NCBI GenBank assembly: GCA_028279745.1
Contig: JANQNC010000001.1
Location: forward strand, 660,001 to 692,000
Origin: Candidatus Nanoarchaeia archaeon
GTDB taxonomy: Archaea; Nanobdellota; Nanobdellia; Woesearchaeales; JANQNC01
Direction: 5' to 3'
DNA length: 32,000 nt
Under the pieces are notes generated by a model that saw only the letters and a program-made list of their open reading frames with translations, was not told where the DNA came from and ran no database searches. Position 1 is the first letter of the stretch. Each line of letters opens with the position of its first letter. Made by a program: the position numbers and the translations under genes. Positions 1-23,740 of the stretch are shown here, piece by piece.

Positions 1-1018
1 CAGACTTGCTGGTGGAAATTATAAATGGGATCGCTAAAGAGGACATAAATGGTTCTGGACTTTGAACATCAATCCCCAATCCAAGACCTGTATTAACTTC
101 AATCTCAATCCTTTCTTCTTCAGACCAAAGCTCAGCTTTATTCATACATTTAACATCAAAAGTGTGAGTTGAGAAATCAGCCAATCCTGTGAACTTCCTT
201 GTGTTTGTTGTTGAAAAGTTATCGCTAAATCTTTCAAAGCTTGCTCCGTTTTCGGAGTATTCACATCTTGCATCTTCATCAGTGATAACTTCTAAAGTTG
301 CAGTCCTTATGGGCTCAACAACCTTATTGTTCCAGGTGTCAGGTGCAGTTAATGAGTTTATGATTGGAGGAGATGTATCATAGCTAATCAAAAACATCCT
401 AGCTGCAATATCATTGTATTGATTTTTACACTTAACATAGAAAGGATATTCCACATTCTCGTTAAGAAGCTGATAAGATGAAATAGAATGGATGTTGTTA
501 TTGTCTGAGAAATCATATGAGTTATCAAATGAAGTGTCAACATTATTGTACTTACAAGAAGCATTAACAAAAGTGTCTATCGTTACTGGAAATGTGGACG
601 AGGATGCAACCCCATTTGAAGGATCCACCATCGATACATTAAACGGAAGCTCAACTATCGTAAACTTAGAATAAAAAGTTCCAGAGTTACCGAAAATATC
701 TTCTGCAGTTATCTTAAATGTAAAGTTTCCTTCTTCAAGTCTTTCTACAGGCTCAAATACGAATGTGTTGTCAGTCTTGACAGGAGGGTTAAGAGCTACA
801 AAGTTTAAGTTAGAAGAGTTAGATGTGTTGGTCTGACTAAAAAAGTCAACAAAACCCCTAACTAACGCGTAAGAAGTTACAGAAACATTTGTAGGATCAT
901 CAAAAACAACATAAACAACCGGCTCAGGAGTGTAAACTTCTCTGATGTTAGGAGGAGCAAGAGAGCTAACAAAAACTGCACTCAATAAAATTATTAAAAC
1001 AAATACTATTTTTCTCAT
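1..1018 (-). CDS. Secreted Ig-like repeat surface protein, N-terminal 339 codons only (continues past the left window edge)
   Basis: Absent from the ORF track because it has no in-window stop. My hand translation of the minus strand from ATG 1018-1016 stays open to position 2. It begins MRKIVFVLIILLSAVFVSSLAPP (Sec-like signal), followed by T/S/N/V-rich beta-type sequence. It has a D-T-S-P-P module boundary and two 2-Cys modules (NASCKYNN...YVKC; DEDARCEYSENG...FDVKCMNKAE) like those in the 1872-aa neighbour. It starts 8 nt after that gene's stop. Confidence 0.75.
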   Translation of the reverse strand, partial: MRKIVFVLIILLSAVFVSSLAPPNIREVYTPEPVVYVVFDDPTNVSVTSYALVRGFVDFFSQTNTSNSSNLNFVALNPPVKTDNTFVFEPVERLEEGNFTFKITAEDIFGNSGTFYSKFTIVELPFNVSMVDPSNGVASSSTFPVTIDTFVNASCKYNNVDTSFDNSYDFSDNNNIHSISSYQLLNENVEYPFYVKCKNQYNDIAARMFLISYDTSPPIINSLTAPDTWNNKVVEPIRTATLEVITDEDARCEYSENGASFERFSDNFSTTNTRKFTGLADFSTHTFDVKCMNKAELWSEEERIEIEVNTGLGLGIDVQSPEPFMSSLAIPFIISTSKS

Positions 1019-1026
1019 CTTCAAAA

Positions 1027-4000
1027 TCATTCATACTCAAAATCTGGCTCTTCAGGAGCTTTCCGATCTGAAATCATCAGTAATTCCTGAACAATCTGGT
1101 TGCCAGAGTAATCAACACCAATTAGGTTTATACGGTTCATGACCTCTTCGCCAGGGTCAGTTTCAAGGAAAAGCTCTATAGTGAAAGTATCATCAACTAT
1201 TGAAGCTTGATCATTCAATATTTCTTCAAATATGAAATCAACATCTCCTCTCTTGAAAGTGCCGTGAGCTATTACACTATTCTTATCAGTCCTGTAAACA
1301 TTATCACCCATCCATAAAGCATCTTCAATGTAAGTTACCTTGAAAGGGGGCTCTACAACCAGAGGTGTTAATGTGTATTGTATTTCTGCTTCATTTCCTG
1401 CTTTATCCTTTACTGAAACTTTTACATTAGACGTATTATCAATACTTATCACTCCGTTAAAGAATCCTTCTGTGTAAGTGTTTTCTTCAACTTCTGCCAT
1501 GAACTGGTTAATGAAAACAGACTCCAAACCATTAGTGTCTGACCATGTTCCCCTAACTGTTGGAGTGTAAGTTGTTGTTATATTTCCAGATGTTACCTGG
1601 ATAATAGGAGAGGTTGTATCAACAATAAATTCTCTGTTAGCAACTCCCGTCTTTGCACCAGAGATCGCTTCAATTTTCATACTATGTTTTCCCTCTGTTA
1701 AAACAGGTGAAGAAACAGTGTAAGTTCTTAGATCGACAGCAGTTGTTATTGCAGGAGTGTTGTCAACTGTAACTGTAATTCCCCCATCAACATCTTTATC
1801 GAAAGTTAGCGTAAAAGTTGGGGTTGTTGAATTAGTATATTTTGGAATTGCTGAAGTTAAAGTAGGTGCGTCTTTGTCGTATGTGAAAGACCAAGCAGTT
1901 GAAGCAGTGTTATTGACTAAATCAGATGCTGACAAAGCCATGTCAAACTCTTCAAAGTCTACAGCTGGCGGTAATGATATAATATAACTTAAACTTCCAC
2001 CCTTACCCAAAGGTGTGAAAATATTTGATTTTAAAGAACCGTCAACATCTAAGAATACAGACTCTGCGTCTACTCCAAAATTATCAAGAACTTCTGCATC
2101 AATAGGTTTTAGTGTGCCGATAACATCTCCATCATGAGGAGTTAAAGATGATAAGATTATTTCAGGAGATACATTATCGTAGAATGTGTATTCCCATTCA
2201 CTTCTTCCTTTGTTACCAACAGGATCATAAGCAGTTATTACAACTTTATTCCTTCCAGGAATTTCTAATGGGATGTTAAGGAAGAATCTTCCAGTCTGGG
2301 TCCCAGTAGATGAAACTGCAATCGATGAAAAATCTTCACCAAATGCAGGACTTACGACAAATCTTGTGTTTGATCCTGAAGGGAACGAGTCCACAACTTC
2401 GTAACGTCTAGGTGTATCCGTTCCTGCTGTTGAATCATCATAATTTTGTTTTGACTGCACAAAGTCTCCTTTCTGCATATCTGGAGTTCCTGCTAAATCA
2501 AATGAATTAGCTCCCGATACAACAGGATTTGTTAATGTGAATTCTTGTATGTCTTCATAACCTCCAGAACTAGTGGTTGTTATTTCAATATCATTAACTG
2601 AAACTTTTAAGGTTATATCTCCTTCAATAGTGTTATCTCTTCTGGATTTTTGGGTTATTCCTGAAACATCTAAGGATTTTGATGCAACTTTCGGTAAAGG
2701 ACTATCTAAAACAAAGTTAGGGCCTTCGGTGTCAGAGTAAACAGTTATCTCGTCACTTCCTTGCCCTAAAGAGTAGATTGTAGCTATAACAGTGTTAGGG
2801 CCTTCTTCCAATGGGATATTTTTTGCAGTCCATGATGTTCCAGTTATTACTGCTTCCTTAGTTGAGTCTCCAGACTGCACCCTTATGACTTCAGGAATAC
2901 TAAACTTGTTTTCAAATGTGCCTGACAAATCAACTATGTTATCTGTCAAAGAGAAACCATCAACAGGTTCAGTTATTGTAATTGAGGGACCATCACTGTC
3001 CACATTAACTCTACCGCACTTAGTTTCTTCAAAGTTGTTACCTTTATCAACAGATCTGTAACAGATCGACTGGGATTCAGTTAATGTCATAGGTTCTGCT
3101 GTTTCAAATGGTTCACAGTTAACACCTTCACAAACCTCAACCCTGTCGCAACCAAACTCTATGCTTCCATTTTCCATCTCAGGATCTGAGCAGGTGAATG
3201 TAAGTAATGCTGTGTAAAAGAAATCACTGTTCCAGTTATCAGTATTTGTGAAAGACTGATTAAATGTAAATAAACTATCTCTGATGTTGACAGTTGTTGA
3301 AGGTGGTGTGATATCAACTGTGAATACGATGTTTTTGACATGACTTTTTAGAGTGGAGTCAAGACAGTTAACCTGATATGAATAAAGACCATCCTCCAAA
3401 TTTCCTATTGACTGCATATGAGACAACCCATCTGTCTGGGACATTTTTGTAAATGTTTGATGCTGCGTTCCGTATGCACAACTAGCCGCATCTTCAGTGT
3501 TTAGCTCTATAACTGCGGGTTTATCAGATGTTGTTACATTAGGTCTTACAACTGTAATGTATAAATCTCTTGCAACATTGATTAGTGTAAATTCTGTAAG
3601 GTTATTTCCTGCAAGATCTGTGCAAGTGACTTCGTAAGGGTATGTTCCATCATTAACCTGGTAGACTGCACTCCACAAATTACCTCCAACATGACCCAAT
3701 CCAGATTCACCCATAAAGTTGTCTGTGCATGATGCTGTTGAATCTGTGGAAACTCCAATGTTAAGAACTGATTTTAATTCATCTTCTGTGTGGTTGTTAA
3801 CTTCAACATTAATGAAAACTTGAGGAGGGGTGGTGTCAACTAAGAAGTCAAAAGATTTTGTAACTTCGTTGTTATTATTGTTATCTTTAGCATAGTAGTA
3901 CATAGTGTTCAAGCCTTCAACTGTTTGGTTTAACGTTATAGGAACTGCAATCTCTGGAGAACCGGTGCTTGCCCTAACATTACTCGGACAGTTATCGTTA

Positions 4001-6645
4001 ATGCTGTAATAAAGTTCTGTGACATCTTCATCCACCAAGAAAGTAAACACATAACCTTCTGAGCTTACAACTTCAGGGATTGAAGAAACTTCTGTTTCAG
4101 GAGGCGTTGTATCTTGTTGTGTGCCATCATCAGGCAAACCATCACCGTCACCATCCTTAAAGCATATACCTTCACTCCATCTGCATACATCTAAACCGCA
4201 AGGGTTTGCACCTCTATTGAAATTGTTACAAGATGCATCTTGTGATTTTTGTATTCCTCCAGTACACGCAACTTCATCAATAAAGTCTGAACATATTGTA
4301 TCTTCACATGAAACACATAAATTATTTGTTGAAACACAATCACCTAAAAGATTACAGACAGGTTGCGTGCATCCAAGATTGCTAAACACATCACTCTGAG
4401 CTGAGCAAATTTCACAAACATCTTCTTTAACAGTTGCAGGAGCACATATACCTCCGTTAAATTCTTCAGTGTTATTGATCGGGTTCCACTGGCAGTTTTC
4501 AACACCACAGTTATCTACTTCACATGCGTTCTGGCTTGTGTAGTCAAAGCAAGTCATGTTATGTCTACAATCATAACACTTGTCGATTGTTGTGTCTGAG
4601 TAATCATAGAAACAGAAGTTGCTGTCATCTGTACCTAGACAGGTGTTTTCTTCGTAGAACAAACCAGCCGGGCTTCCTAATGCTTCACATAAAGATTTCT
4701 TCTTACATACTGCTCCACCCGTAGTCTCAGCACAAGTTAAATCATAAACTGAACAGTCATCAATGACTGCGGGGAAGTTCTCTGAACAGAACACAATAGC
4801 GTTTAGGTCTCCCTCATCTGAGAACGTTCCTCCTTCATTGTTCAAACAGAACTGCCTATCTGTAAATCTGCCTTCACAGTACTGGCTGCCTGGAGAGACA
4901 GAAACATTTACCCAGTCAGATTCGAAATTGTTTCCTGTGTAAATCGCTTTTATCTGATAGTTATAATTAACATCCCAAAAAACTTCTTCGTCGACATAGA
5001 AAAGCTCATCTGCCAATAAAGAAGTTGTTAGCTGCCCATCAGTTCGTTTTAAAACATAACTTTCAATGTTAGGACATGTTTTAACCCAAGAAAGTCTAAC
5101 TTTTTCCTCACCAGGAACTGCTTCACCTTCAAACTGAGCTGGAGCAGGTTTGGTTTCTGCGTCACAATCAACATCTGCATACTGTAAAACAATCTCTTTG
5201 TAAGATCCAATACCTATGAAAACATTTGAGTCAAGGAATTCAGCATAACCAGGAGCTCTTGCAGTAACAGTCAAAGTACCAAGAGGCAAACCAGAAATTG
5301 AAAACGTGCCATCTTCAACAGTAATATCTTGACCAAACGGATAGTAAATGCTTCCAACTATAACAACTGCACCCTCAACTGGCTCGCCTTCAATATTTGT
5401 GACAACACCCGATAATGAACCTCCAGGTACATCACAGTCAGGATCAGACGGGCAGTTGAACAAATCACAATTGCCATCTAGAACATCACATGCACTACAA
5501 TCAGAGTCAGCAGGACAGTTAGAACAGTAAAGACCTCTGCTAGCAGGGTTGTTGACATCAAAAGATATCATCGTGTTAGCAGAAGAATCACAAAAAACGT
5601 TATCAACAAAGTTACATCCATCCGCACCTTTACATAAATTGATTTCATTACAACAAACTTCGCTGCCAGGACAACCCAAAGTGCCTTTATCACCACTGTA
5701 ACAGTTAGCGCTTATGTCACAAACGCCACCCGCAGATGTACAGAAAGAAGAATCAGGAAGACACTGACTGTTTTGGCAAGTTTTGTAATTACCACAAACT
5801 TCACCATCACATTCAGGCTTTAAACAATCTTGAGCAGTAGAACACTCCAAACTAGGCTCTTGACATACACAGTTTTCATCATAAAACCCATTAATTCCGC
5901 ATTCATCCCCAATAACACATTCTAAAAAGTCTAAAGTAAAGTTAACACTTTCGTCATCAAAATCGTAAACTCTAGGGAAAACTTCAGATACATGGTTAGG
6001 TGCAGATACTTCAAACACCATACTTCCAGGGACTAAAGAAGAAAGAACATACTTTCCAGTTGAGTCTGTACCAACAATAGTAGACCCAACCTTAACCTGA
6101 GCATTATCTACAGGATAACCTTCAGAGCTGATAACCCAACCTTCAATCTTTATTAATTGTTCAAAAGTTATACCATCACAGTAAACAGTCTCGCAAAACA
6201 ACTCAGTCATTTCAGGAGATGCAGGCTCAAAAGTTCTAACAGAATATTCAGGCAAGCCTAAAGTGATAGGATCACAACTACCTTGAGTTATATACTGACA
6301 GTTAACAGATGAAGCTGATTGAAGAACACAACATCCTAGATAACATTGAGAAACTCCCTCACATGTAGGCGCTGAAAGATTAACAAAGGTAGCATCACAA
6401 TCAACTCTTTCAGAAACTTCAGAACATCTGTCATCATAGACACAACAACCTACTTCAGTAGCTGCAGGAATCAGTTCACACTCTCTCGTGTCAAAAACAA
6501 CCCCTGGCCTACATTCACTCTGAGATGTAGCATTGTAAGAAGGGAATGATGTAGAAGGGTCTAAACAACAACCCGCGATAACATTTTGAGATAGTGCAAT
6601 CAAGAAAAATAAAGCTATTGATATCACTAAACCCCTCTTATTCAT
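1027..6645 (-). CDS. Giant (1872 aa) secreted mosaic surface or adhesin-like protein: Cys-rich segments, two CarboxypepD_reg-like domains, FN3, about 10 Ig-like modules
   Basis: Long uninterrupted ORF. The N-terminus is MNKRGLVISIALFFLIALSQNVIA|GCC, and GGTGA lies 4 nt upstream of the ATG. Three GCC modules (AGCCLDPS, VGCCVYDDRC, LGCCVLQS) sit at about nt 6270-6575. CarboxypepD_reg-like stretches are IKIEGWVISSEGYPVDNAQVKVGS...TDSTGKY (about 5990-6150) and SGVVTNIEGEPVEGAVVIVGS...GTFSISGLPLGTLTVTARAPGY (about 5250-5420). An FN3-like stretch VRLSWV...YVLKRTDG...YNYQIKAIY lies at about 4900-5150. A DGDGDGLPDD acidic hinge is at about 4120-4155. About 100-aa modules then follow, bounded by D-x-x-x-P (VDTTPP, VDITPP, DSDGP, DTEGP, DNVSP, DKDAP, DTTSP, DRKAP). 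The C-terminus EEPDFEYE has no TM segment. Confidence 0.9.
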   Translation of the reverse strand: MNKRGLVISIALFFLIALSQNVIAGCCLDPSTSFPSYNATSQSECRPGVVFDTRECELIPAATEVGCCVYDDRCSEVSERVDCDATFVNLSAPTCEGVSQCYLGCCVLQSASSVNCQYITQGSCDPITLGLPEYSVRTFEPASPEMTELFCETVYCDGITFEQLIKIEGWVISSEGYPVDNAQVKVGSTIVGTDSTGKYVLSSLVPGSMVFEVSAPNHVSEVFPRVYDFDDESVNFTLDFLECVIGDECGINGFYDENCVCQEPSLECSTAQDCLKPECDGEVCGNYKTCQNSQCLPDSSFCTSAGGVCDISANCYSGDKGTLGCPGSEVCCNEINLCKGADGCNFVDNVFCDSSANTMISFDVNNPASRGLYCSNCPADSDCSACDVLDGNCDLFNCPSDPDCDVPGGSLSGVVTNIEGEPVEGAVVIVGSIYYPFGQDITVEDGTFSISGLPLGTLTVTARAPGYAEFLDSNVFIGIGSYKEIVLQYADVDCDAETKPAPAQFEGEAVPGEEKVRLSWVKTCPNIESYVLKRTDGQLTTSLLADELFYVDEEVFWDVNYNYQIKAIYTGNNFESDWVNVSVSPGSQYCEGRFTDRQFCLNNEGGTFSDEGDLNAIVFCSENFPAVIDDCSVYDLTCAETTGGAVCKKKSLCEALGSPAGLFYEENTCLGTDDSNFCFYDYSDTTIDKCYDCRHNMTCFDYTSQNACEVDNCGVENCQWNPINNTEEFNGGICAPATVKEDVCEICSAQSDVFSNLGCTQPVCNLLGDCVSTNNLCVSCEDTICSDFIDEVACTGGIQKSQDASCNNFNRGANPCGLDVCRWSEGICFKDGDGDGLPDDGTQQDTTPPETEVSSIPEVVSSEGYVFTFLVDEDVTELYYSINDNCPSNVRASTGSPEIAVPITLNQTVEGLNTMYYYAKDNNNNNEVTKSFDFLVDTTPPQVFINVEVNNHTEDELKSVLNIGVSTDSTASCTDNFMGESGLGHVGGNLWSAVYQVNDGTYPYEVTCTDLAGNNLTEFTLINVARDLYITVVRPNVTTSDKPAVIELNTEDAASCAYGTQHQTFTKMSQTDGLSHMQSIGNLEDGLYSYQVNCLDSTLKSHVKNIVFTVDITPPSTTVNIRDSLFTFNQSFTNTDNWNSDFFYTALLTFTCSDPEMENGSIEFGCDRVEVCEGVNCEPFETAEPMTLTESQSICYRSVDKGNNFEETKCGRVNVDSDGPSITITEPVDGFSLTDNIVDLSGTFENKFSIPEVIRVQSGDSTKEAVITGTSWTAKNIPLEEGPNTVIATIYSLGQGSDEITVYSDTEGPNFVLDSPLPKVASKSLDVSGITQKSRRDNTIEGDITLKVSVNDIEITTTSSGGYEDIQEFTLTNPVVSGANSFDLAGTPDMQKGDFVQSKQNYDDSTAGTDTPRRYEVVDSFPSGSNTRFVVSPAFGEDFSSIAVSSTGTQTGRFFLNIPLEIPGRNKVVITAYDPVGNKGRSEWEYTFYDNVSPEIILSSLTPHDGDVIGTLKPIDAEVLDNFGVDAESVFLDVDGSLKSNIFTPLGKGGSLSYIISLPPAVDFEEFDMALSASDLVNNTASTAWSFTYDKDAPTLTSAIPKYTNSTTPTFTLTFDKDVDGGITVTVDNTPAITTAVDLRTYTVSSPVLTEGKHSMKIEAISGAKTGVANREFIVDTTSPIIQVTSGNITTTYTPTVRGTWSDTNGLESVFINQFMAEVEENTYTEGFFNGVISIDNTSNVKVSVKDKAGNEAEIQYTLTPLVVEPPFKVTYIEDALWMGDNVYRTDKNSVIAHGTFKRGDVDFIFEEILNDQASIVDDTFTIELFLETDPGEEVMNRINLIGVDYSGNQIVQELLMISDRKAPEEPDFEYE

Positions 6646-6661
6646 CTAATCACCTATACCT

Positions 6662-6722
6662 ACAAAAACAACCTTTTACAGGTTGGTTTTTGTTGTACTC
6701 AGAATTCTCACTAGAATTCTGA
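6662..6722 (-). promoter_or_regulatory. Two adjacent stem-loops in the 135-nt spacer upstream of the giant gene (possible leader, attenuator or processing structure)
   Basis: Plus-strand 6662-6693 reads acaaaaacaacc/ttttaca/ggttggtttttgt: 12 bp with one bulged G, and a T5 run on the minus-strand 3' arm. Positions 6699-6722 read tcagaattc/tcacta/gaattctga: a perfect 9-bp stem with a 6-nt loop. A/T-rich TATA-like boxes (atttaaata, catttaaatag) lie at about 6722-6757, upstream on the minus strand. GGTGA is 4 nt before ATG 6645. Confidence 0.45.
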
Positions 6723-6780
6723 TATTTAAATAAATCCATTCTTCCATTTAAATAGTTTGTGGTTTATACCGAGGGAAAGC

Positions 6781-7965
6781 CTAGTTAGGGATAAATACCT
6801 TAAATCTTTGAGAATCATTTAAACCTTGAGGGTCAAAAATAGTTATGTTAGCAAAGCAGTCACTGCCAGTACAATTAACAGGTGCAGGGGACAATCTTCC
6901 ATTAGGATGAAGAAGACCGCTGCTAAGAGGATCCCAAATTACTGATTCAGTTAATGCATCTTCATCAGGATCAAAAGTAAAAACAGGGACAGTGATAGAG
7001 GATAAAACATCCTGATCTTCAATAAAAGAAACTACAGGGGGACGATTTTCTCTAGCAAAAACAAAAGTATAATCTTGAGCGTATAGGGAGGAGAGAGAAT
7101 CATTAACTACCACTATATCTGTCGTGTCAGAAACTTCTGTAAGTTGTAATGAGAAACCGTGCTTCCACGAAGCCAAATCTTCATAATCTCTAGCCATGTT
7201 AAAAGAAAGGAATGAGTTATCTTTACTTATGAGCTCATTTACGAATTCATGCAAACTGTTAAGCCTTATCCGCTTTGTGACTTTGAAATCTGTCAACTCT
7301 GCTAAAGGTGTGCCTTCGATAACTACTGTGACATTTAAGTTAGATGTAACATCAAACTCGTTAATGGAAGTTTGAACAGTGACGTTTCCTGCAGTTACAC
7401 CTTCTTGGAAATCTGTGAAATCTAGACAATCTTCAACATTAGCCTTAACAAAATTATCAAGCTGAACCTCCCAACTGAAGTCGCTGTCTCTTAAATCAGG
7501 CAGGGAAGATCTTCCGTAGTTACCTGTTGATTCCCCTGTTTCAGTAAAGTTTTCAGAAGGGTAATGGGCAGGGTGAATACGATTCTTTCTAATAAGGTAT
7601 GTAACTGAATAGTTCAAAGATTCGTTACATTTGTTTTGTGTTGAGTCATAAAAAAGATTTTTTGGTTGAATCGTAAGATCATAAAGTGGTGTAGGAAATA
7701 CTTCAAAGACATTACCTTTACATTCTCTTGTGATATAACCAGACTGTCTTCCCAAAACTTCCAAACCCTCATCCAAAGATCTTGACAAGCATTGAGTTAC
7801 AAAAGCCTTAACTCTTGTGGATGAGAAAAGTTCTTTAGCTGCTTCTTCAGTGGTGGCTTGAGAAGTCTCTTCTCTAGCTTGACCAGAAAAGTAAAACATA
7901 AAAAAAGCAGCAATAACAATAATCACACCAAGAATAAGAAAAAAAGTTATTTGACCTTTTTTCAT
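6781..7965 (-). CDS. Type IV pilin-like (class III signal peptide) protein with a large extracellular region and a cadherin-like C-terminal module
   Basis: The N-terminus MKKGQITFFLILGVIIVIAAFFMFYF has a short basic n-region, K-G|Q-I, then about 20 hydrophobic residues. This pattern is known from archaeal prepilin-peptidase substrates with Gln at +1. The C-terminus ENRPPVVSFIEDQDV...TFDPDEDALTESV looks like a cadherin or dystroglycan-type module. ATGA start/stop overlap with the upstream 988-aa gene at 7962-7965. Confidence 0.8.
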   Translation of the reverse strand: MKKGQITFFLILGVIIVIAAFFMFYFSGQAREETSQATTEEAAKELFSSTRVKAFVTQCLSRSLDEGLEVLGRQSGYITRECKGNVFEVFPTPLYDLTIQPKNLFYDSTQNKCNESLNYSVTYLIRKNRIHPAHYPSENFTETGESTGNYGRSSLPDLRDSDFSWEVQLDNFVKANVEDCLDFTDFQEGVTAGNVTVQTSINEFDVTSNLNVTVVIEGTPLAELTDFKVTKRIRLNSLHEFVNELISKDNSFLSFNMARDYEDLASWKHGFSLQLTEVSDTTDIVVVNDSLSSLYAQDYTFVFARENRPPVVSFIEDQDVLSSITVPVFTFDPDEDALTESVIWDPLSSGLLHPNGRLSPAPVNCTGSDCFANITIFDPQGLNDSQRFKVFIPN

Positions 7966-10928
7966 CTTTCAATTCTGGCAGAAACTACAGCATCCTTCCA
8001 CAAATTCTCAAACTCGTAATCAGGCAGACCGTACAACCAGCTCCTCCTCGCTATAAAAGTTGTCTCATTATTTATTTCATTACAAGCAATATCAAACTCA
8101 CCAGGGTTTGCTCTGTATAAATCAAAAATGTGGGTTGAGTTACAGATAGTTGTGTTAAATCCTGAATAAGTAGCAGTTATGAAAGTCTGTTCCTGTTCAA
8201 CTTCATCATACTTTGTCTCAACAATACCTTTAATGTTTTTGCCTTCTGTGTCTTTTAGATAAATTCTGTCAAAGTCGCCAGTTCGATTTATGAATTCATA
8301 ACTTCCGTAAGGAACTGTATATTCTCCTACTAAAAGAGTTAATATTGATTCGACAGGATCAACAAAGAAATCATAAAGTCCATCCCACAATCCTTCAAAG
8401 AAAGACATAGGCATACCCTCAATATCTTGAGTGGAATAAATAACTGCTCTTGTCTTATTATCCCACCAAAGCTGTCTAGAATTGCATCTTTCAAACCCAA
8501 TAGGGTTGTCTAAAGCATCGCTACAAACATCGTTAAAATGAGATATGTTGAAAGTGTTCTTCATAGCAATAGGCAAATAATCTTCCATAATAAATTCATA
8601 ATCATCATTAACCGTTGTACCAACTACTGTTTGGTCTTCGTACGTTAATACACAGAAGTTATTGTAAGCATCAGGATCGATAGATCTAATATAAGAAGCG
8701 GTTTCCTTAGTAACTCCTTGTTGTAATGTTTCTGCCTCCCAATAATTCAAAGCATTTTGAGGAATATCACAATGTAAACTATACTCATCTTCAGGCAAGT
8801 CCATCATCGTTAGAGCTAAAAGTTTAGTTCTAGTAGTCCATGAACCATTCTGACAGTAATGATCTCTCAAATACTGATCATCTGACACACAGTCAGGCCA
8901 GTCCGCTCTAACACCCTGACTTAGGAAGTAAGAGGTTGTGTTATAGTTATTTTCAGGATTTCCCAAATTAGTAACTAAACAATCCTCTACGTTAGGACAA
9001 TAACCTGATTCACTAAAATCCCAGTTATGCTTAAGTCTTGCAATCGCCCAGGCACCATCAATACATCTGTAATCTTCATCATTATAGTTGAATGGAGGGC
9101 TCTGATCATATCTTTGATTGGGAGTACATTCATTGCCATTCCAACACCAAGTGCTAGGACAACATTGCGGGTTAGAACCGTCAGGTAAAGTTTTAGTTGC
9201 TGAAATTAAATCTAGATCTGAATAAATATCTGCAGCTTTCCATTCATTAGTATACTCACAATAGCTTGTTCCAATATTCTGACATCTGTCTGCTACTTGA
9301 ACATCTGATGGATCTGCAAAGTATGTTGCGAATTGTGGAGACGATGCTTCACTACATTCCCAGAACTTACTTTGACCAAAAATAACTTGAGTTTCAGTGC
9401 ACTCTTCATCAACTTCACCATCACAGTCGTCGTCTAAATAATTACCACAAACTTCATCTGGGACCGTGCCACAATAACCGCACTTGTTTAGCAATCCAAA
9501 CTCGGTTCCTTCTGTGTTTTCGTCTACCTGAGTGTTACAGTTATCATCTATATTGTTACAAGTTTCAGTTGTTGGAGTTACTCTGAATGGTTCATAAGCA
9601 CATTCACCAATACCTTCTAGAATATTATCATCTCTGTAAATGTTAACAAAAGCTGTGCCGTTATCTGCTTGGGGGATTACACCATCACATTGATCAATAG
9701 TTCCATCTAAATCTGAGTCTAGTTGGAAAGAATCTGTTTGACCGTTGCTGTCACAATCTTCATCACAAGTGCTAGTCCATGGCGCTGCACCATCTTTACC
9801 TTCACCAACAGGACATGATGTGCCTGCAGATTCTGTACAATCAGCATCTTCTTCATCTCTATAACCATCTCCGTCGTTATCAACACCATCAGAACACCAT
9901 GCTGAGTTTGTGTTTTCCGGAAGAGGTTCAGAATTCATCCACTGGAAAGTTTGATTTAGTGTGTTGACCTCAAAACGTATAGACGTTCCCCCCGGGTTTG
10001 TCAAGTCCATGTTTCTTAGATAAATCTCCACCTTGTTAATTCCTGCAAAGAATTGTAAACTATCAAAGTCTGAATTGTAAGATCTAGAATTTCCTCCCCC
10101 ATACTTCGTTATCTTAACTAAAAATTCAGTTAAAGAACTCGTAGAAAAGTAAACAGGAATATCCCTTGTACTATAAGAAGAAACATACGTCTCAAGCTTG
10201 ACAGTACTATTAAATCCAGTTATAACTTGAGGTGATAAAAAGTTCCCAGTTGTGATATCCACCGTCTTAAAACGAGTAAGTGTCAAGTCACCATAGTCAG
10301 ACTCAAAATTAGAAGTTCCTTCAGGGACTACTTCCGCAGCCCACTGATTATTTGGTAAAGGGGAAGTTATTTCAGAATCTGAATAACCTGTGCTTTTGCA
10401 AGCACCATTCGCACACATCTCATCAGACCCACAATCATGGGGGTTCCCCCCATATTTATCCTCTAAAAATGCACCAACCAGATCATCCCCGTCATCAAAA
10501 AGTTCCCATACCCCTACCAAACTACATTCATAAACTTCTGAAGAAGAATCACAAAAGTCAGATTCTGATTTACCAGTTTCATAGTTATAACAGTAACCCT
10601 TAACATTAGTGCTTGATGAGCCACATTTACCTTCAGTGCTACGATCATCAGCCCCACCATAAATAATAAACTCACTCAAACTACAGCCCTCTTGGTCCGT
10701 GCCTTCGTCATAAATCTCGCCAATGTCTCCCGTGGCAGTACAACTACCATCTGCAGACTCTCTTTTGTAAGAGTTAGTATCAACATCATCAGCACCATCA
10801 CCTTCAACATCCTCATCAAGACTGCAATAATGCTTAACCGTTGCAGCATATGCAAACGAAGTTAGGAAAAGACAAAGTACTGTAAACAACATAACTAAAG
10901 TTAATCTGTTGGATTTAGTAAGTCGCAT
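7962..10928 (-). CDS. Secreted acidic Cys-rich protein (988 aa), paralog of the 711-aa neighbour; PA14-like beta core plus MopE/TSP3-like D-x-D-x-DG repeats
   Basis: Signal peptide MRLTKSNRLTLVMLFTVLCLFLTSFAYA|A. The core shared with the 711-aa protein is KLETYV, GINKVEIY, FQWMN and WCSDGVDNDGDGYRDEEDADC. Further repeats are CNNIDDNCNTQVDE, CGNYLDDDCDGEVDEEC and DSDLDGTIDQCD. The C-terminal roughly 400 aa is W/Y/C-rich with no motif I recognise. It overlaps the upstream gene by 14 nt. Confidence 0.85.
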   Translation of the reverse strand: MRLTKSNRLTLVMLFTVLCLFLTSFAYAATVKHYCSLDEDVEGDGADDVDTNSYKRESADGSCTATGDIGEIYDEGTDQEGCSLSEFIIYGGADDRSTEGKCGSSSTNVKGYCYNYETGKSESDFCDSSSEVYECSLVGVWELFDDGDDLVGAFLEDKYGGNPHDCGSDEMCANGACKSTGYSDSEITSPLPNNQWAAEVVPEGTSNFESDYGDLTLTRFKTVDITTGNFLSPQVITGFNSTVKLETYVSSYSTRDIPVYFSTSSLTEFLVKITKYGGGNSRSYNSDFDSLQFFAGINKVEIYLRNMDLTNPGGTSIRFEVNTLNQTFQWMNSEPLPENTNSAWCSDGVDNDGDGYRDEEDADCTESAGTSCPVGEGKDGAAPWTSTCDEDCDSNGQTDSFQLDSDLDGTIDQCDGVIPQADNGTAFVNIYRDDNILEGIGECAYEPFRVTPTTETCNNIDDNCNTQVDENTEGTEFGLLNKCGYCGTVPDEVCGNYLDDDCDGEVDEECTETQVIFGQSKFWECSEASSPQFATYFADPSDVQVADRCQNIGTSYCEYTNEWKAADIYSDLDLISATKTLPDGSNPQCCPSTWCWNGNECTPNQRYDQSPPFNYNDEDYRCIDGAWAIARLKHNWDFSESGYCPNVEDCLVTNLGNPENNYNTTSYFLSQGVRADWPDCVSDDQYLRDHYCQNGSWTTRTKLLALTMMDLPEDEYSLHCDIPQNALNYWEAETLQQGVTKETASYIRSIDPDAYNNFCVLTYEDQTVVGTTVNDDYEFIMEDYLPIAMKNTFNISHFNDVCSDALDNPIGFERCNSRQLWWDNKTRAVIYSTQDIEGMPMSFFEGLWDGLYDFFVDPVESILTLLVGEYTVPYGSYEFINRTGDFDRIYLKDTEGKNIKGIVETKYDEVEQEQTFITATYSGFNTTICNSTHIFDLYRANPGEFDIACNEINNETTFIARRSWLYGLPDYEFENLWKDAVVSARIER

Positions 10929-13050
10929 TTATCAACTCCCCCTCTTCCAGGTATAATGAATTCCAACATCCACCAACAGTGTCAGCATAATAATTATCTT
11001 TTGTCAAGTCATCTCCACAACAGGCAGTTCCGCTCCACCTGAACGCTTCAGAGTTAGCCTCACAGGATTGACCTTCAAAACCTTCAATGTTATCATCATC
11101 TAAGTCAGTTATCCATCTGAACACTCCTTGTTGACCCGGTGCACAATACTGTAACTCATTATCAGCTGTAAGATAGAATGTGTTTGCTAATTCTATATTT
11201 ACTTGAGTCACTTCAGTATCAAACGCTGCAGGCGGAACAAAGAATGCAACTTTAGTGACTGGCATAGTCACCACATCAGTTGGGATCTTTACATGAACCC
11301 ATTCACCCATTCTAGGTATACCTGTTAAATAATCTTTAACAACAATTGGTTCTTCTGCACCTACGATATTCATATTCAATAAAACATTATCTAAAAATTT
11401 AACATCAAACTCAACATAATCATAAATACCCCAGTTTCTAGAAGACAAATCTTCAAACCAATAGGCATTAGTGGTCGGAGAAAACTGTAAGTTTCCAGAA
11501 GTTTCTGCATCAACAAAAACGATCCTGTTGGATAAATCATCACAGCTAGCAATATATTCTTGCTCGTCTGAGAGATCATTCAAGTAACAAAGTAAATCAC
11601 CCCTTACACCTGAAAAAGTTTCCCCACCAGTAGCACCAAATGTGCCTTTACTATCTCTATCACAACCTAACCAGCTAAACTCAGTAGAGAAAAGTTGGTA
11701 AACTCCTTCATCCTGACTGTCTCTTCTTATTGTTAATATCTGTCCAGTGTCTTCTGTGTACAACCCAGCATCAACCCATTTACTCTCGTTATTCTCATCA
11801 AAAATACAAACATACTCAGTTGAACCAATCTTCACATATTTACCAAAGTCAGATGCTTCATCACCACAACAACCTTGAGTCAAAGCAGGTGTTGAATTAC
11901 AATCAATAAATTCGTTACAGTCAGGATCAAACATATCAACAAAACCATCCATGTCATCATCTAAACCATTCTCGCAACCATCAACATTTGCTTCATTAAA
12001 ATTATCATGATTCATCCATTTGAAATATGAAGATAAAGCATCACTAGCAGTTATTATAAGACCTTGAGTTTTAACTGATTCATTATCGTTATAAAAATAA
12101 ATGTTGATCTTGTTCAAACCTTTAGTGAACAAAAGATTTGCAGCGCCAGCACCACTATAAGAGGATACCTCGCTATCACCAGAACCATAATCATTCTCAA
12201 TAAGAATCACAATATCTGTAGTTTGGTCATAAACATTTGTTATAGGAACCGATATATCATTCTCAACAAAAACATAAGTCTCTAACTTGTAAGCAGAAGG
12301 AAGAATGTTAAGACCAGGAACCAAATAATCCTCTGAAGGATCAGCATAAATGTAAAGATCGCCTTCAGTTCCTGAAGCATTACCAAAAACATCAACAGGG
12401 TCTGACAAGTCCTCATCCAACGTGGGAAGTCTATAAGTAAACTTCCACATCCAGTTTGGTGCAAAAGAAGGAGTTTCAATAACAACACTCTCCTCAAGGT
12501 AATGATCTTTCAATTTATGACATACTTGGTCTGAACAAACAGCACCAAGAGCAGCACAATCTACTCTAGCATATCTGTTAACATCATCACTATCATCATC
12601 ATAGTCACCAATTACATAGCACTCCAAGGAGTACTGTACATCTTCACACTGATCAGAAGCATATTCAAACGCAGGTTCTTCATCATTCCAACAAGCACCT
12701 TTGACATAAACACTTCTTTGATCCGCAACCCACAAATCATCATCTGCATGGTAAACTATATCCCCCCTAATACACCCGTTAGGTGAGACATCAACAGGTT
12801 CAACTTTGTAAGAATCCTCATCCATAGAGTCCAAGTTCAAATCGTCTTTTCCATACCACCCGTCTGTTATCTCATAATCATCAAACCATCTGTTGATATC
12901 ACTAGGCGTATCATCTAACTTTGAGTTACACTCAATATGACAACCATCACAACCATCATCTTCATCAAACTCAACAGCATATGCAAAGCTAGTCAAAAAA
13001 AGGACAGTCACTACAAAAAGAAATAACTTAAACAGCTTTGAACTCATCAT
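10915..13050 (-). CDS. Secreted acidic Cys-rich protein (711 aa), paralog of the 988-aa neighbour; PA14-like core, MopE-like motif, CBM-like C-terminal region
   Basis: Signal peptide MMSSKLFKLFLFVVTVLFLTSFAYA|V. I count 24 Cys by hand. Motifs: KLETYV, GLNKINIY, FKWMN, GCENGLDDDMDGFVDMFDPDC. There are two CCGD[DE] motifs. The stretch YDYVEFDVKF...GEWVHVKIP resembles a carbohydrate-binding beta-sandwich. It is the first gene of the island. Confidence 0.85.
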   Translation of the reverse strand: MMSSKLFKLFLFVVTVLFLTSFAYAVEFDEDDGCDGCHIECNSKLDDTPSDINRWFDDYEITDGWYGKDDLNLDSMDEDSYKVEPVDVSPNGCIRGDIVYHADDDLWVADQRSVYVKGACWNDEEPAFEYASDQCEDVQYSLECYVIGDYDDDSDDVNRYARVDCAALGAVCSDQVCHKLKDHYLEESVVIETPSFAPNWMWKFTYRLPTLDEDLSDPVDVFGNASGTEGDLYIYADPSEDYLVPGLNILPSAYKLETYVFVENDISVPITNVYDQTTDIVILIENDYGSGDSEVSSYSGAGAANLLFTKGLNKINIYFYNDNESVKTQGLIITASDALSSYFKWMNHDNFNEANVDGCENGLDDDMDGFVDMFDPDCNEFIDCNSTPALTQGCCGDEASDFGKYVKIGSTEYVCIFDENNESKWVDAGLYTEDTGQILTIRRDSQDEGVYQLFSTEFSWLGCDRDSKGTFGATGGETFSGVRGDLLCYLNDLSDEQEYIASCDDLSNRIVFVDAETSGNLQFSPTTNAYWFEDLSSRNWGIYDYVEFDVKFLDNVLLNMNIVGAEEPIVVKDYLTGIPRMGEWVHVKIPTDVVTMPVTKVAFFVPPAAFDTEVTQVNIELANTFYLTADNELQYCAPGQQGVFRWITDLDDDNIEGFEGQSCEANSEAFRWSGTACCGDDLTKDNYYADTVGGCWNSLYLEEGELINATY

Positions 13051-13080
13051 CTAAAAACCCCTTTTTACCCCGCTTGACTA

Positions 13081-13090
13081 TTAATATAGT
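13081..13090 (-). promoter_or_regulatory. Candidate TATA box for the surface-protein island
   Basis: Minus-strand tatattaa lies about 31-40 nt upstream of ATG 13050. An AGGGG purine tract sits just before the ATG. Confidence 0.3.
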
Positions 13091-13133
13091 ATGATAAAGA
13101 AAAAATGCAAAAAAGTATTTATAAATGTTTTGG

Positions 13134-13211: not shown

Positions 13212-13871
13212 TCAGTCTACTAACTCAACACCTTCAGCCAGGTAAGAAGTAGATTTCTTTTTCAGATTATGAGAAATCTTGTTCTTGATTGATTTCAAAG
13301 CTTTACTTGCTTCACTAGGATGCGCACCCAAAGTTATCAAAAAAGCTTTCAGATCATGAGGAGATCTCATATCTTCTGGCTTAGTTGCAAATGAAGCTAA
13401 AGCTAAATCAAACTTGTATTTTCTAGCAAAAACAATGTTTTGCATGATTCTTCCCAAAATGTTTGCTCTTTCAGTGTCTTTTGAATTAAGGATCAATGAA
13501 AAATCAATTGTGATAACCTTGCCTTTTTCTTTTGCTAACTTGCAAAGCACTTGATTTAGACCTGAGCTTCTGTGATGCATGAAATCTTTAGGTTGTTTTT
13601 CTAAATTGATCACTAAATCTCCAAACTTAGATTCAAAAAACTTCCTTCCACAATCTTTAACGACAGTTAAGTCAGTGTTAAACTGCTTAGGTTCGTCGGT
13701 TAGGATCCCTGCGTAAAGATTAAGTTCTGATTTTGATCTTAAAGATTCTAACTTTTTTGAATTTAACTCTTTCTGATTCTTATAGAGAAAACACAAACCA
13801 GTATAGCCTAACTTTTCAGCCATGGCAACAAATCTTTCTTCGTTATCTTTTGAAACTACAACATCAAACAT
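13212..13871 (-). CDS. rnp3: RNase P protein component 3 (Rpp30 family)
   Basis: The product starts MFDVVVSKDNEERFVAMAEKLGYTGLCFLY and ends ...LALASFATKPEDMRSPHDLKAFLITLGAHPSEASKAL, which is Rpp30-like. I prefer the internal ATG at 13871 (M29 of the tracked ORF). It has GGAG 8 nt upstream and gives an 8-nt overlap with ABCE1 instead of 92 nt. Confidence 0.72.
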   Translation of the reverse strand: MFDVVVSKDNEERFVAMAEKLGYTGLCFLYKNQKELNSKKLESLRSKSELNLYAGILTDEPKQFNTDLTVVKDCGRKFFESKFGDLVINLEKQPKDFMHHRSSGLNQVLCKLAKEKGKVITIDFSLILNSKDTERANILGRIMQNIVFARKYKFDLALASFATKPEDMRSPHDLKAFLITLGAHPSEASKALKSIKNKISHNLKKKSTSYLAEGVELVD

Positions 13872-15627
13872 AGTAATAATCTCCTGAAGACTTTTGCTCA
13901 GAATCTTTTTGAGAATCTTCCTTATTGGCTCTTGGCCTGTGAGATTCTGGATCACGTCTGAAAGTCATATTCAGATCTTTCAAGAAATGATTCATCCCTT
14001 CACGCATATCAAAAGGACCTTTAGCAATACCTTCAACTGCTGGCTCGCCATCAAACACCAATAATCTATTACTAATGTAATCTAAGAAAAGTAAGTCGTG
14101 ATCGACAACAACCGCTGTCTTTCCAGAAACTTCCATAACATCTCTGATTATTTTTGAAACTAACAGTCTTTGTTCTACATCTAAGTAAGCAGATGGCTCA
14201 TCTAATAGATAAAGTTCTGCATCCTGACCCAAACAGATTGCGATAGCAACTCTTTGCAACTCACCACCTGAAAGTTGGTTAAGTTGTTTGGTCATCAAAG
14301 GCTCCAAGTTCAAAGGAGCTGCAATCTGATTCTTGAATAGAGTAGAGTTAACATCTTTAACCTTCAACGCCAAAACACTCATAACGATATCATCTGAGTC
14401 TCCTTCTAAGTACTGAGGCTTGTATGCAACTTTAATCTGTTCATCAACTTCACCTTCATCAGGGTCTAAAACTTTAGCAAGAATCTTAATGAAAGAAGTT
14501 TTACCGATACCATTTTCCCCCATAACCCCTACAACTTCTTGAGAGTTAAATTCTCCTTCTGGAGCTTCCAATTTAAATGCATCTAGTTGTTTTTTGATAT
14601 TTTTCCAGGATGTTAATTCATTGCCGCTTAGTTTTGCAGCACCAGACTTTTCAATGAACTTAATCGGTCTGTCCCTGAATCTAATGTTTTCTTCTTTTAG
14701 GTAACCTTCAAGATAAATATTGATTCCTTTCCTTGTTGATTTGGGCTGGGAAACAATACCGTAAGCAGTTTCTTTACCATACATCAGGTGAACTAAGTCA
14801 GTCATGTAATCTAAAACTATCAAGTCGTGTTCAACAACCATAACTGCTGTGTCTTCATCAGCCAAATCCCTGATAAACTTACTGACACGCATCCTTTGCT
14901 TAACGTCTAAGTATGAAGTGGGTTCGTCAAAAACATAGAAGTTTGCTTTCTTCAGAACTGCTGCAGCAATCGCTAATCTTTGCAACTCACCACCAGATAA
15001 ATTCTTGATATCATTATCCAGGATTTTAGTTAAAGAGAGTTGTTCTGCAATCTCGTTAAGTTTTCCTTTCTCATCTGCTTTCTCTAGCAAATCTTTAACT
15101 TTTCCTTCTTGAACTTTAGGGATCAAGTCAACTTGTTGAGGTTTGTATGAAATAACAATCTCTTCCTTCTTAACTTTTTCAAAAAATATCTGAGCTTCGG
15201 TTCCTTTAAAGTGATCAATCAGTTCATCATAGTTAACTTCTTCATCTTTTCCTAAGTTAGGTCTTAAAGCACCTGCAAGAATCTTAATCGCAGTGGATTT
15301 TCCAATTCCGTTTCTACCCATAACACCCACTACTTTTCCGAAGATAGGGATAGGTAAGTTGTAGATGTGAAATCCATTTCTTCCATAACGATGGATTGGC
15401 GTATCACCTAATTCTTGAGGCAGATTAATAATATCAATTGCCTTGAATGGACATACCTTTACACAAATGTCACATCCAATACAAACATCTTCATGGATGA
15501 ATGCTTTATCTTTCTTTTCGATACAATTAATCCCTTTACGATTAACAGGGCACTTTCTCTCACAAAGAAAATCTCCGCAACCTTCAGGATTGCAATCTTG
15601 TCTCCTAACAACAGCTATTCTCGACAT
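13864..15627 (-). CDS. ABCE1: ABCE1 / RNase L inhibitor-type ribosome recycling ATPase
   Basis: N-terminal double 4Fe-4S ferredoxin Cys clusters (CNPEGCGDFLCERKCP; CIGCDICVKVCP). Two ABC nucleotide-binding domains with GRNGIGKST / GENGIGKTS Walker A motifs and two LSGGELQR signatures. Confidence 0.95.
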   Translation of the reverse strand: MSRIAVVRRQDCNPEGCGDFLCERKCPVNRKGINCIEKKDKAFIHEDVCIGCDICVKVCPFKAIDIINLPQELGDTPIHRYGRNGFHIYNLPIPIFGKVVGVMGRNGIGKSTAIKILAGALRPNLGKDEEVNYDELIDHFKGTEAQIFFEKVKKEEIVISYKPQQVDLIPKVQEGKVKDLLEKADEKGKLNEIAEQLSLTKILDNDIKNLSGGELQRLAIAAAVLKKANFYVFDEPTSYLDVKQRMRVSKFIRDLADEDTAVMVVEHDLIVLDYMTDLVHLMYGKETAYGIVSQPKSTRKGINIYLEGYLKEENIRFRDRPIKFIEKSGAAKLSGNELTSWKNIKKQLDAFKLEAPEGEFNSQEVVGVMGENGIGKTSFIKILAKVLDPDEGEVDEQIKVAYKPQYLEGDSDDIVMSVLALKVKDVNSTLFKNQIAAPLNLEPLMTKQLNQLSGGELQRVAIAICLGQDAELYLLDEPSAYLDVEQRLLVSKIIRDVMEVSGKTAVVVDHDLLFLDYISNRLLVFDGEPAVEGIAKGPFDMREGMNHFLKDLNMTFRRDPESHRPRANKEDSQKDSEQKSSGDYYYV

Positions 15628-16220: not shown

Positions 16221-16478
16221 ATGAAAATGAACTCATTTGAAAAATACACACTAGGAAGACAAAGCGAAAAATTAGGAGTTACAATGACTCCAGAACAGGA
16301 AAGAAAATTTGAAGTGAAAAAAGCAAAAGTTGCAGAACCGAAACTGATGATGAATGCAGGCGATGCAAAAGTAGCAAAGACAAGCCTGAAACAAGCAATA
16401 GATTCAGGAATGTTAAGCGGAGCAGGAGAAAAGCTAGTTTCACAGTACTCAGACGACATCAAGTACTTCAAAGAATGA
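16221..16478 (+). CDS. Small hydrophilic protein (85 aa), function unknown, translationally coupled to the GH15-like gene
   Basis: GGAGG at 16212-16216, 4 nt before the ATG. ATGA overlap with the next gene at 16475-16478. The antisense 91-aa ORF looks like a mirror artefact. Confidence 0.6.
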   Translation: MKMNSFEKYTLGRQSEKLGVTMTPEQERKFEVKKAKVAEPKLMMNAGDAKVAKTSLKQAIDSGMLSGAGEKLVSQYSDDIKYFKE

Positions 16479-18123: not shown

Positions 18124-18195
18124 GCCTCGATGGCTCAATGGTAGAGCATCGCTCTCGTAAAGCGAAGGTTGAGGGTTCGATTCCCTTTCGAGGCT
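18124..18195 (+). tRNA. tRNA-Thr: tRNA-Thr (anticodon CGU), no encoded CCA
   Basis: Cloverleaf folded by hand. Acceptor GCCTCGA/TCGAGGC; D arm GCTC-AATGGTA-GAGC; anticodon arm TCGCT-CTCGTAA-AGCGA (anticodon CGT); variable loop AGGTT; T arm GAGGG-TTCGATT-CCCTT; discriminator T. Confidence 0.93.
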
Positions 18196-21212: not shown

Positions 21213-21219
21213 TCTTCAC

Positions 21220-23647: not shown

Positions 23648-23652
23648 ATTGA

Positions 23653-23690
23653 TTACCGATATATCTAATTCCGATACCTGTTTATAAAGG
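23653..23690. promoter_or_regulatory. Divergent promoter region with direct repeat TTNCCGATA x2 (candidate PadR operator) and TATA element
   Basis: ttaccgata at 23653-23661 and ttccgatac at 23669-23677, spaced 16 bp. tttataaagg at 23681-23690 lies about 35-43 nt from ATG 23647. A second TATA-like aatttatatatg at about 23709-23720 faces the plus-strand gene at 23741, which has the AAGAGG RBS. Confidence 0.3.
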
Positions 23691-23740
23691 TTTTGTTTAA
23701 TTGGAAAAAATTTATATATGTGCACAGAAAATAAGAGGTT

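Follow-up and report, generated by a model that had tools for sequence, protein, structure and literature searches.

A conserved cluster of surface-protein and pilin-like genes beside Rpp30 in Woesearchaeales-type archaea

We have analyzed a 32,000-nucleotide (nt) stretch of DNA from a Candidatus Nanoarchaeia archaeon of the order Woesearchaeales (GenBank assembly GCA_028279745.1, contig JANQNC010000001.1, positions 660,001 to 692,000), here called the window, the first 13,050 nt of which carry an island of five surface-protein genes, A to E. This island opens a cluster that is conserved among DPANN archaea of the Woesearchaeales type and in which an A/B family, a C family and a D/E family are followed by small pilin-like genes. 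We read the cluster as that half of a type IV filament (TFF) locus which supplies adhesins and minor pilins, an interpretation that in our judgement stands about an even chance of being right. The Woesearchaeales are among the most abundant and diverse of the DPANN archaea; we know of none in pure culture and of no account of the manner in which they contact their hosts. The cluster supplies concrete candidate attachment genes for this group, from families that have neither Pfam models nor solved relatives.

The five genes are all on the minus strand. In order of transcription they are A (10915-13050, 711 amino acids (aa)), B (7962-10928, 988 aa), C (6781-7965, 394 aa), D (1027-6645, 1872 aa) and E (1-1018, at least 339 aa, cut by the window start). 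As recomputed from the coordinates, A and B overlap by 14 nt, B and C by 4 nt (ATGA, with the C start codon on the B stop codon), and D and E are separated by an 8-nt gap. These sizes and junctions agree exactly with the original prediction, which was made from the sequence alone and had proposed an undescribed attachment apparatus of five co-directional, translationally coupled genes. The predicted export or anchor signals are likewise present, since every product begins with a basic n-region followed by a hydrophobic stretch, and Pfam and NCBIfam scans of A-E found no enzyme, ATPase or transporter domain, as had been proposed. The acidic Cys-rich segments are real by composition (24 Cys in A, 43 in B and 84 in D; 15-20% Asp plus Glu), and D-x-D-x-DG motifs occur at residue 364 of A, residues 350, 404 and 499 of B and residue 831 of D. 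The same scans gave no support from hidden Markov models (HMMs) to the PA14/CBM-like and FN3 calls of the prediction. The GC content of the island (0.36-0.40) is the same as that of the remaining window; with no compositional anomaly and with conserved synteny to Rpp30, horizontal transfer of a foreign island was ruled out. Homologues of the island genes are present in about 100 other contigs, so that the predicted open reading frames (ORFs) are real genes and not chance ORFs. The named relatives are all metagenome-assembled genomes of Woesearchaeota or Nanoarchaeota.

The organization of the cluster was examined in loci gathered with an alignment of the C family (13 genome and 80 metagenome loci) and in four more from context look-ups. 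The ORFs of all loci, numbered L001 onward, were annotated with profiles and BLAST, which left 95 distinct loci that contain a C-like gene. In 24 of the 58 that were evaluable, the C-like gene is directly preceded, on the same strand, by a B-like gene, and a D-core homologue lies within three genes after it in 21 of 48. A same-strand protein of at least 800 aa comes within three genes after the C-like gene in 42 of 50 loci, compared to a share of 11.6% among all complete ORFs; of 39 evaluable loci, 17 have Rpp30 upstream of the cluster. L005, L007-L010, L015-L018, L020 and many metagenome loci show the genes in the order B-like, C-like, D-like, in most cases preceded by Rpp30. The C-family proteins of the window and L020 are 40% identical; the three families stay adjacent and in the same order at protein identities of 23-30%. 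The junction between the B-like and C-like genes in relatives is a 4-nt overlap in 6 of 30 cases, and no more than 5 nt separate the two genes in 14 of 30. The records of L007, L008, L010 and L011 are titled "uncultured Methanosarcinales archaeon", probably through taxonomic mislabelling or mis-binning.

Loss of the gene order in relatives had been named beforehand as grounds for abandoning the prediction; the order recurs in dozens of Woesearchaeota-type contigs, and the products contain no enzyme domains, so that the idea of a conserved surface-protein set without enzymes holds. Two other features of the prediction had to be revised. The unit is not five proteins but three conserved families, as relatives encode A and B as one gene and, further off, also D and E. 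Nor is the cluster confined to genes A-E, since in relatives it runs on with several small pilin-like genes.

These small genes, two to six in number and encoding 93-390 aa, follow the D-like gene in L004, L007, L008, L009, L015, L017, L020, L029, L054 and L066. The N-termini of their products consist of [KR][GAS], then Q, F or M and about 20 hydrophobic residues. A 93-aa protein of L017, for example, begins with MRKKA followed by QGISINVIIIAAIALAVLVVLFMIF, and downstream proteins of L020 begin with ..YTKAQ followed by VGQVFIFILAIV, MAVKKSQ followed by VSVQFNWIFVLIAG and MKFFNKSQ followed by IKMFETIAILFI. The pilin-like genes downstream of the D-like gene in L004 and L017 encode 93-115 aa, and those of about 93 aa are candidate major pilins. 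Overall, six of about eight cluster families in the relatives have prepilin-like N-termini. The small downstream proteins gave no Pfam or NCBIfam match above threshold; a 156-aa protein of L017 scored 17.2 bits (E = 0.0027), under the cut-off of 20, against TIGR02537, the archaellin/type IV pilin N-terminal model. As D and E are split in L020 just as in the window, we infer that the same small-gene continuation lies past E in the window genome.

Gene C is predicted to encode a modular pilin-like protein. Its N-terminus, MKKG followed by QITFFLILGVIIVIAAFF, is a candidate class-III-type signal with a putative cleavage site after Gly4, and a C-terminal cadherin-like beta-sandwich follows invariant NRPPV and DPDED motifs. 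An exhaustive profile search for the C family returned 8247 relatives, 610 of them at E<=1e-30, these counts being of 50%-identity representatives. The N-terminal pattern [KR..][GAS]/Q[ILVF][TS]xFxxLG is present in 123 of the 150 best relatives; the remainder of these 150 are truncated at the N-terminus or match through the C-terminal repeat domain only. Q5, T7, F9 and G13 are invariant in the family alignment (A1). Members range in length from 340 to about 1900 aa by C-terminal additions, and no Pfam family was found for the 41 members scanned. The AlphaFold2 (AF2) model of C (predicted template modelling score (pTM) 0.57) contains a long helix over residues 3-73, an alpha/beta domain at 165-306 and the beta-sandwich at 311-392; among PDB structures it comes closest, though weakly, to cadherin-like modules of the adhesin SraP and of protocadherins (E = 2e-3). 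If the cleavage is true, the C family would widen the known range of archaeal prepilin-like signals. One C-family protein, P0055, is labelled "Bdellovibrio sp.", which is probably a taxonomic mislabel or a case of mis-binning.

As a filament module, the cluster might work as follows. A prepilin peptidase encoded elsewhere would cleave C after Gly4, and through its hydrophobic helix C would become part of a short filament of small pilins or sit at the tip of that filament, on which it would display its cadherin-like domain. A and B, exported by Sec and stabilised by disulfides and Ca2+ (TSP3/MopE-type repeats), would dock onto C in a way resembling the non-pilin tip adhesins that ride minor pilins; the recurring ATGA coupling of B and C can be cited in this respect. 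Secreted D would bind anchored E to give a long fibre of immunoglobulin (Ig)-like repeats that contacts the host or a surface, and the ATPase and platform protein would work from another locus. Several of these elements have precedents. The EppA-processed pilins of Methanococcus have signals of 5-13 aa ending in Gly and a conserved Gln at +1 (PMC3875500). Archaeal pilin loci are commonly unlinked to ATPase and platform loci (PMC3875500, PMC4858521), and absence of the machinery at a locus is thus not absence from the genome. Archaeal TFF loci often hold large Ig-rich adhesin-like proteins (bioRxiv 10.64898/2026.04.22.720090). Given this TFF-type context, the apparatus is not of a wholly undescribed kind: its protein families are uncharacterised, but pilin and adhesin loci of type IV filaments with Ig-rich proteins are known.

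Several results weigh against a filament module. Genes for a prepilin peptidase, a secretion ATPase or a platform protein are absent from the 32-kb window; of the 95 related loci only one (L006) has the platform gene T2SSF, and no secretion-ATPase (T2SSE) Walker motif was found in L001-L020 or the window, a scan that did not extend to the 80 metagenome loci. L006 (the same as L002), the only locus with a C-family gene beside TFF machinery, does speak for a filament: its positions 1-4227 encode T2SSF, a 153/161-aa pilin (KRGQ followed by AAMEFL, with Glu at +5), a Memo-like protein and a C-like protein. The window itself ends inside E, and the small pilin genes of this genome are inferred from relatives. 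No curated pilin HMM of Pfam or NCBIfam matches C at any threshold, among them DUF361/Class_IIIsignal and TIGR02537. The C family also lacks Glu at +5, where Phe or another hydrophobic residue is found (this Glu is likewise absent from Sulfolobus and Haloferax pilins; PMC3875500), and its -1 residue is often Ser, which is not a classical prepilin-peptidase site, or Ala. The model of C is of low confidence (predicted local distance difference test (pLDDT) 65) and its fold matches are weak (E ~2e-3). Finally, the D-type proteins, having signals of the signal peptidase I type and a transmembrane (TM) anchor, are not filament subunits, and they are linked to the filament solely by gene neighbourhood.

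Class III signals are also borne by surface-tethered binding proteins, for example those of the Sulfolobus bindosome (PMC4858521; bioRxiv 10.64898/2026.04.22.720090), and the C-like and pilin-like proteins might in the same way tether binders for the uptake of polymers or nutrients rather than serve cell-cell attachment. CarboxypepD_reg and Glucodextran_B-type modules, both matched by D, are known from carbohydrate-active proteins, and one neighbour in a relative has a faint match to BasB. That match is at noise level, however (E = 0.2). Moreover, A-E contain no solute-binding-protein domain, the cluster lacks an ABC importer, and the ABC system nearby (18781-23177) is an exporter of the MacB type, without synteny to the cluster in relatives. 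We consider such a capture system very unlikely and favour the filament-associated adhesin module.

The upstream part of the cluster is formed by the A/B family. The product of gene A has a Sec-type signal peptide (..SFAYA/V), an acidic Cys-rich N-region and a beta-rich core, with one TSP3/MopE-like acidic double-disulfide repeat at residues 359-378; its C-terminal region closes with the motif ITDLD..C..W[ST]GT.CCGDD. Gene B encodes a signal peptide and duplicated N-region as in A, three D-x-D-x-DG motifs and a disulfide-rich C-terminal domain of about 450 aa (CCxxxCWNGxxC ... DHxC..W[ST]SRTK) with at least 16 conserved Cys. Residues 1-380 of A are paralogous to residues 1-366 of B (BLASTP 2e-16). 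Relatives have a single gene in place of A and B, encoding 1231 aa in L020 and 1474 aa in L001. Residues 356-708 of A match residues 413-761 of the L020 protein (7e-52), and residues 509-986 of B match its residues 758-1230 (1.6e-129). Similarly, A 540-711 matches residues 489-664 of the L001 protein (7e-12), and the B C-terminal domain is found in the 1474-aa protein of that locus (2e-39). Protein P0028 (793 aa) bears the C-terminal motifs of both A and B. The paralogous N-regions, together with the single-gene relatives, thus indicate that A and B are one ancestral gene, split into two exported proteins by a partial tandem duplication of its 5' part (signal peptide and N-region).

A word-indexed homology search with B as lone query returned only B itself; relatives of the B domain were collected with an alignment built from locus-derived homologues. 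They form 26 protein clusters, all annotated as "hypothetical", which define a Woesearchaeota-specific family and in which no Pfam domain was recognised except for one weak match (P0033). The AF2 model of the domain (pLDDT 70, pTM 0.69) gave no significant PDB fold match with Foldseek (best E = 0.025), and PDB sequence searches with A, B, D and the C profile were empty. The NF033662 acidic double-disulfide model scored 20.9 bits in A and 28.9 bits in B, both under the cut-off of 41, and PF11617 (MopE) scored 16.5 bits in B, under the cut-off of 27; the motif can nevertheless be recognised by eye. No PilY1/PilC domain was matched in A or B in the Pfam and NCBIfam scans. We treat the B C-terminal domain as a putative extracellular, disulfide-stabilised binding or docking module.

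The D/E family accounts for the largest proteins of the cluster. D has a Sec signal (..NVIA/GCC), a Cys-rich N-terminal half (residues 1-830) that holds two CarboxypepD_reg domains and is followed by a DGDGDGLPDD motif, and an array of Ig-like modules over residues 840-1872; it has no membrane anchor and contains 17 N-x-S/T sequons. Besides the two CarboxypepD_reg domains, the HMM matches of D are to Big_13, Glucodextran_B, Big_3_3 and an OmpL47-type barrel. The Ig-like content of the original prediction is thus supported only in part, and its figure of about 12 modules is without HMM support. The product of gene E has a Sec signal followed by Ig-like modules, with a weak match to Big_13. D is 36% identical over its full length to the D protein of L020 (1827 aa), and its core (residues 420-1255) is conserved in L007, L008, L009, L015 and L016. 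E matches the N-terminus of the product of the next L020 gene (929 aa, 37%); at its C-terminal end this product carries a TM helix and a Lys-rich tail of 192 aa. No relatives of E turned up when metagenomes were scanned with it. In more distant relatives D and E are one protein of 1400-2900 aa, which indicates that the two are a single giant membrane-anchored protein, split in the sub-lineage of the window. The membrane anchor of the window pair is presumably carried by E, beyond the window start. All D-type proteins (E-type where split) are built alike, as type I membrane proteins: behind a signal peptide come a giant ectodomain, Cys-rich and with Ig repeats, a single C-terminal TM helix and a cytoplasmic tail of 140-200 aa, of which Lys and Arg make up 21-30%. 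TSP3_bac exceeds its cut-off in the D-like protein of L018 (43.5 bits versus 25). A recurring motif, [DE][IV]F[AES]KL..[KR]K, is found near the end of the Lys-rich tails in L007, L008, L009, L015, L017, L018, L004 and L020, which suggests a conserved intracellular partner for these proteins. D was also considered as a pilin. Its N-terminus loosely fits a class III signal (KRG/L), but the orthologues conserve an AxA-type site directly before GC[CY], and the D-type proteins bear a C-terminal TM anchor; the signal is therefore an ordinary Sec signal.

Proteins of this design could instead belong to an envelope resembling a surface layer (S-layer), in which D/E would be the main Ig-rich glycosylated coat or an anchoring stalk, comparable to SlaA/SlaB pairs, with A, B and C as accessory proteins held by uncleaved N-terminal anchors and the nearby pilin genes unrelated. 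The unanchored D and an E that is TM-anchored in its L020 orthologue mirror the SlaA-like and SlaB-like candidates put forward for Nanobdella, another DPANN archaeon (MJ1_0160/MJ1_0707; bioRxiv 10.1101/2023.10.27.564410), which as in SlaA/SlaB pairs are Ig-rich and sequon-rich, with one protein unanchored and one carrying a C-terminal TM helix. The sequons of D fit such a coat. The cluster is widespread in the lineage, apparently in a single copy and with housekeeping genes (Rpp30, MCM, TBP) around it, and TFF machinery is not adjacent; all of this would suit an envelope. Proteins of 2000-2900 aa with long cytoplasmic tails are, however, atypical of lattice-forming S-layer subunits. D/E show no sequence similarity to SlaA/SlaB or the Nanobdella candidates, are far larger, and differ in their Cys-rich N-terminal halves and their pilin-like cluster. 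No S-layer domain of Pfam or NCBIfam was matched in A-E or the D-like relatives, and the PDB sequence searches were empty; orthologues among characterised S-layer proteins, which were to count against the original prediction, were not found. At the N-terminus of C, the near-invariant Q/T/F/G pattern exceeds the needs of a plain anchor, and the prepilin-like N-termini of most cluster families in the relatives point the same way. An envelope role appears unlikely to us, and we retain the reading as a type IV filament adhesin module.

Signals for transcription were also sought. A TATA-box-like element read from the sequence, CATTTATAAATA (13116-13127, minus strand), about 70 nt upstream of the A start, is a candidate promoter of an A-B-C unit, and a second AT-rich box, ACTATATTAATA, lies upstream of A at 13079-13090 (minus strand). 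Between Rpp30 and A there is also a GC-rich hairpin, but it does not reach significance (z = -1.75). The 135-nt C-D spacer (6646-6780, minus strand) folds better than its shuffled versions (z = -4.15, 0 of 200 as good) and may act as an internal promoter and/or attenuator. It contains a hairpin at 6700-6721, another at 6662-6693 with a U-run after it, and a strong Shine-Dalgarno sequence (AGGUGAU, 6649-6655) before the D start codon. It also holds a 21-nt TATA-like block, AAACCACAAACTATTTAAATG (6745-6765, minus strand), that is identical in L003 (about 1590-1610), despite the proteins of that locus being only about 56% identical to those of the window; L020 has a similar element, TTTATAAAA. 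The block may be a promoter (transcription factor B recognition element and TATA box) or another regulatory site. Relatives, too, generally have a spacer between C and D, the median length being about 81 nt. With a conserved TATA-like block in the spacer, transcription of the five genes may proceed in two units, A-B-C and D-E-(pilins), each translationally coupled inside. The coupled single island of the original prediction thus holds within A-B-C and within D-E, where overlaps or the 8-nt gap are found, but transcription may be split by the C-D spacer.

Such a split would also suit independent adhesins, each product acting alone and the clustering reflecting co-regulation or shared export needs. 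The conserved TATA-like block, the possible terminator hairpin and the frequency of such spacers in relatives are consistent with this, as is the variable gene content between the C-like and D-like genes, where extra genes are found in L008 and L016. In L016 (12441-17477) there are four of these (356, 185, 395 and 710 aa), three of which share the N-terminus MKLE[QN]IT[NE][HK][TE]FK and look like a local paralogue expansion. Independent action is at odds with the recurrent start-stop overlaps of B and C, with the constant adjacency and order of the three divergent families, and with the split pieces of A/B and of D/E, which stay adjacent and coupled. We hold it to be quite unlikely, and prefer a joint role for the products in a type IV filament module.

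No earlier account of the Woesearchaeal cluster was found in the literature searched. Its closest known counterpart is the Epd pili locus of Methanococcus maripaludis (TFF "system 1"), which like the cluster has several pilin-like proteins with short signals and +1 Gln (PMC3875500). TFF system 1 has been reported from some DPANN archaea (PMC3875500; bioRxiv 10.64898/2026.04.22.720090). The Epd locus also encodes larger pilin-like and adhesin-domain proteins, with ATPase and platform genes at another locus. No sequence homology between the two was detected, however; C differs in its hydrophobic +5 residue, in place of Glu, and its frequent Ser or Ala at -1, the cluster has no EppA gene, and the A/B and D/E families are without Epd counterparts. 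At the tip of bacterial type IVa pili, a non-pilin adhesin, PilY1/PilC, is carried by minor pilins. The cluster resembles this tip complex, by functional analogy only, in having a large secreted non-pilin with Ca2+ motifs coupled beside pilin-like genes. Neither A nor B was matched by a PilY1/PilC domain, however, the PDB offers no significant fold match to the model of the B C-terminal domain, and the organism is an archaeon without outer membrane or secretin. The modular pilins PilB and PilC of Streptococcus sanguinis combine a pilin N-terminal module with an extra C-terminal adhesion domain (PMC8179133, PMC9934059). C is comparable in its prepilin-like N-terminus, globular part and cadherin-like beta-sandwich, and in the C-terminal growth of its family members to 1900 aa, but comes from another domain of life and other sequence families, with a pilin fold that is only predicted (pLDDT 65). 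For D/E, giant multi-Ig proteins with a proposed role in adhesion or recognition are found beside pilin genes, for example arCOG05616 and arCOG07037 (bioRxiv 10.64898/2026.04.22.720090). These are likened to D/E by description only; they are from Thermoproteota and lie next to ATPase and platform genes, unlike D/E, which in turn have a conserved TM helix and a Lys-rich cytoplasmic tail. The features of the cluster that we regard as new, not having found them described in the literature searched, are its families, the giant TM-anchored Lys-tailed protein, the Cys-rich domain of novel fold and the synteny linked to Rpp30. These could be combined in a bolder proposal, a Woesearchaeales-wide undescribed organelle that is neither classical pilus nor S-layer: a TM-anchored Ig fibre, its Lys-rich tail reaching the cytoplasm, would be decorated by the B C-terminal domain and modular pilin-like proteins and would seize or probe hosts. 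We consider this doubtful and continue to favour the adhesin half of a type IV filament locus.

The remainder of the window agrees with the original description of core information-processing genes and of Rpp30/ABCE1 as neighbours of the island: it encodes Rpp30, ABCE1, a RIO kinase, a KH/Dim2-like protein, Topo VI A and B, and FKBP. Rpp30, an RNase P subunit (13212-13871, minus strand), lies directly upstream of A and serves as a syntenic marker rather than a functional part of the cluster. Its ORF as listed (13212-13955, minus strand) has a GTG start and a 92-nt overlap with ABCE1, but homologues align only from residues 27-29; the true start is probably Met29 at 13871, leaving an overlap of 8 nt with the ABCE1 stop. 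A second surface-related operon (18781-23725, minus strand), unrelated to the cluster and not syntenic with it in relatives, comprises in order a PadR regulator, an ABC ATPase, a 409-aa CARDB/NPCBM_assoc protein and two MacB/FtsX-type permeases. A 332-aa ORF (16475-17473, plus strand) matches only the N-terminal 180 positions of the GH15 profile (length 427) and is either a truncated or a divergent GH15-like protein. The sole RNA gene found in the window with ARAGORN and Rfam is a tRNA-Thr (CGU) at 18124-18195 on the plus strand.

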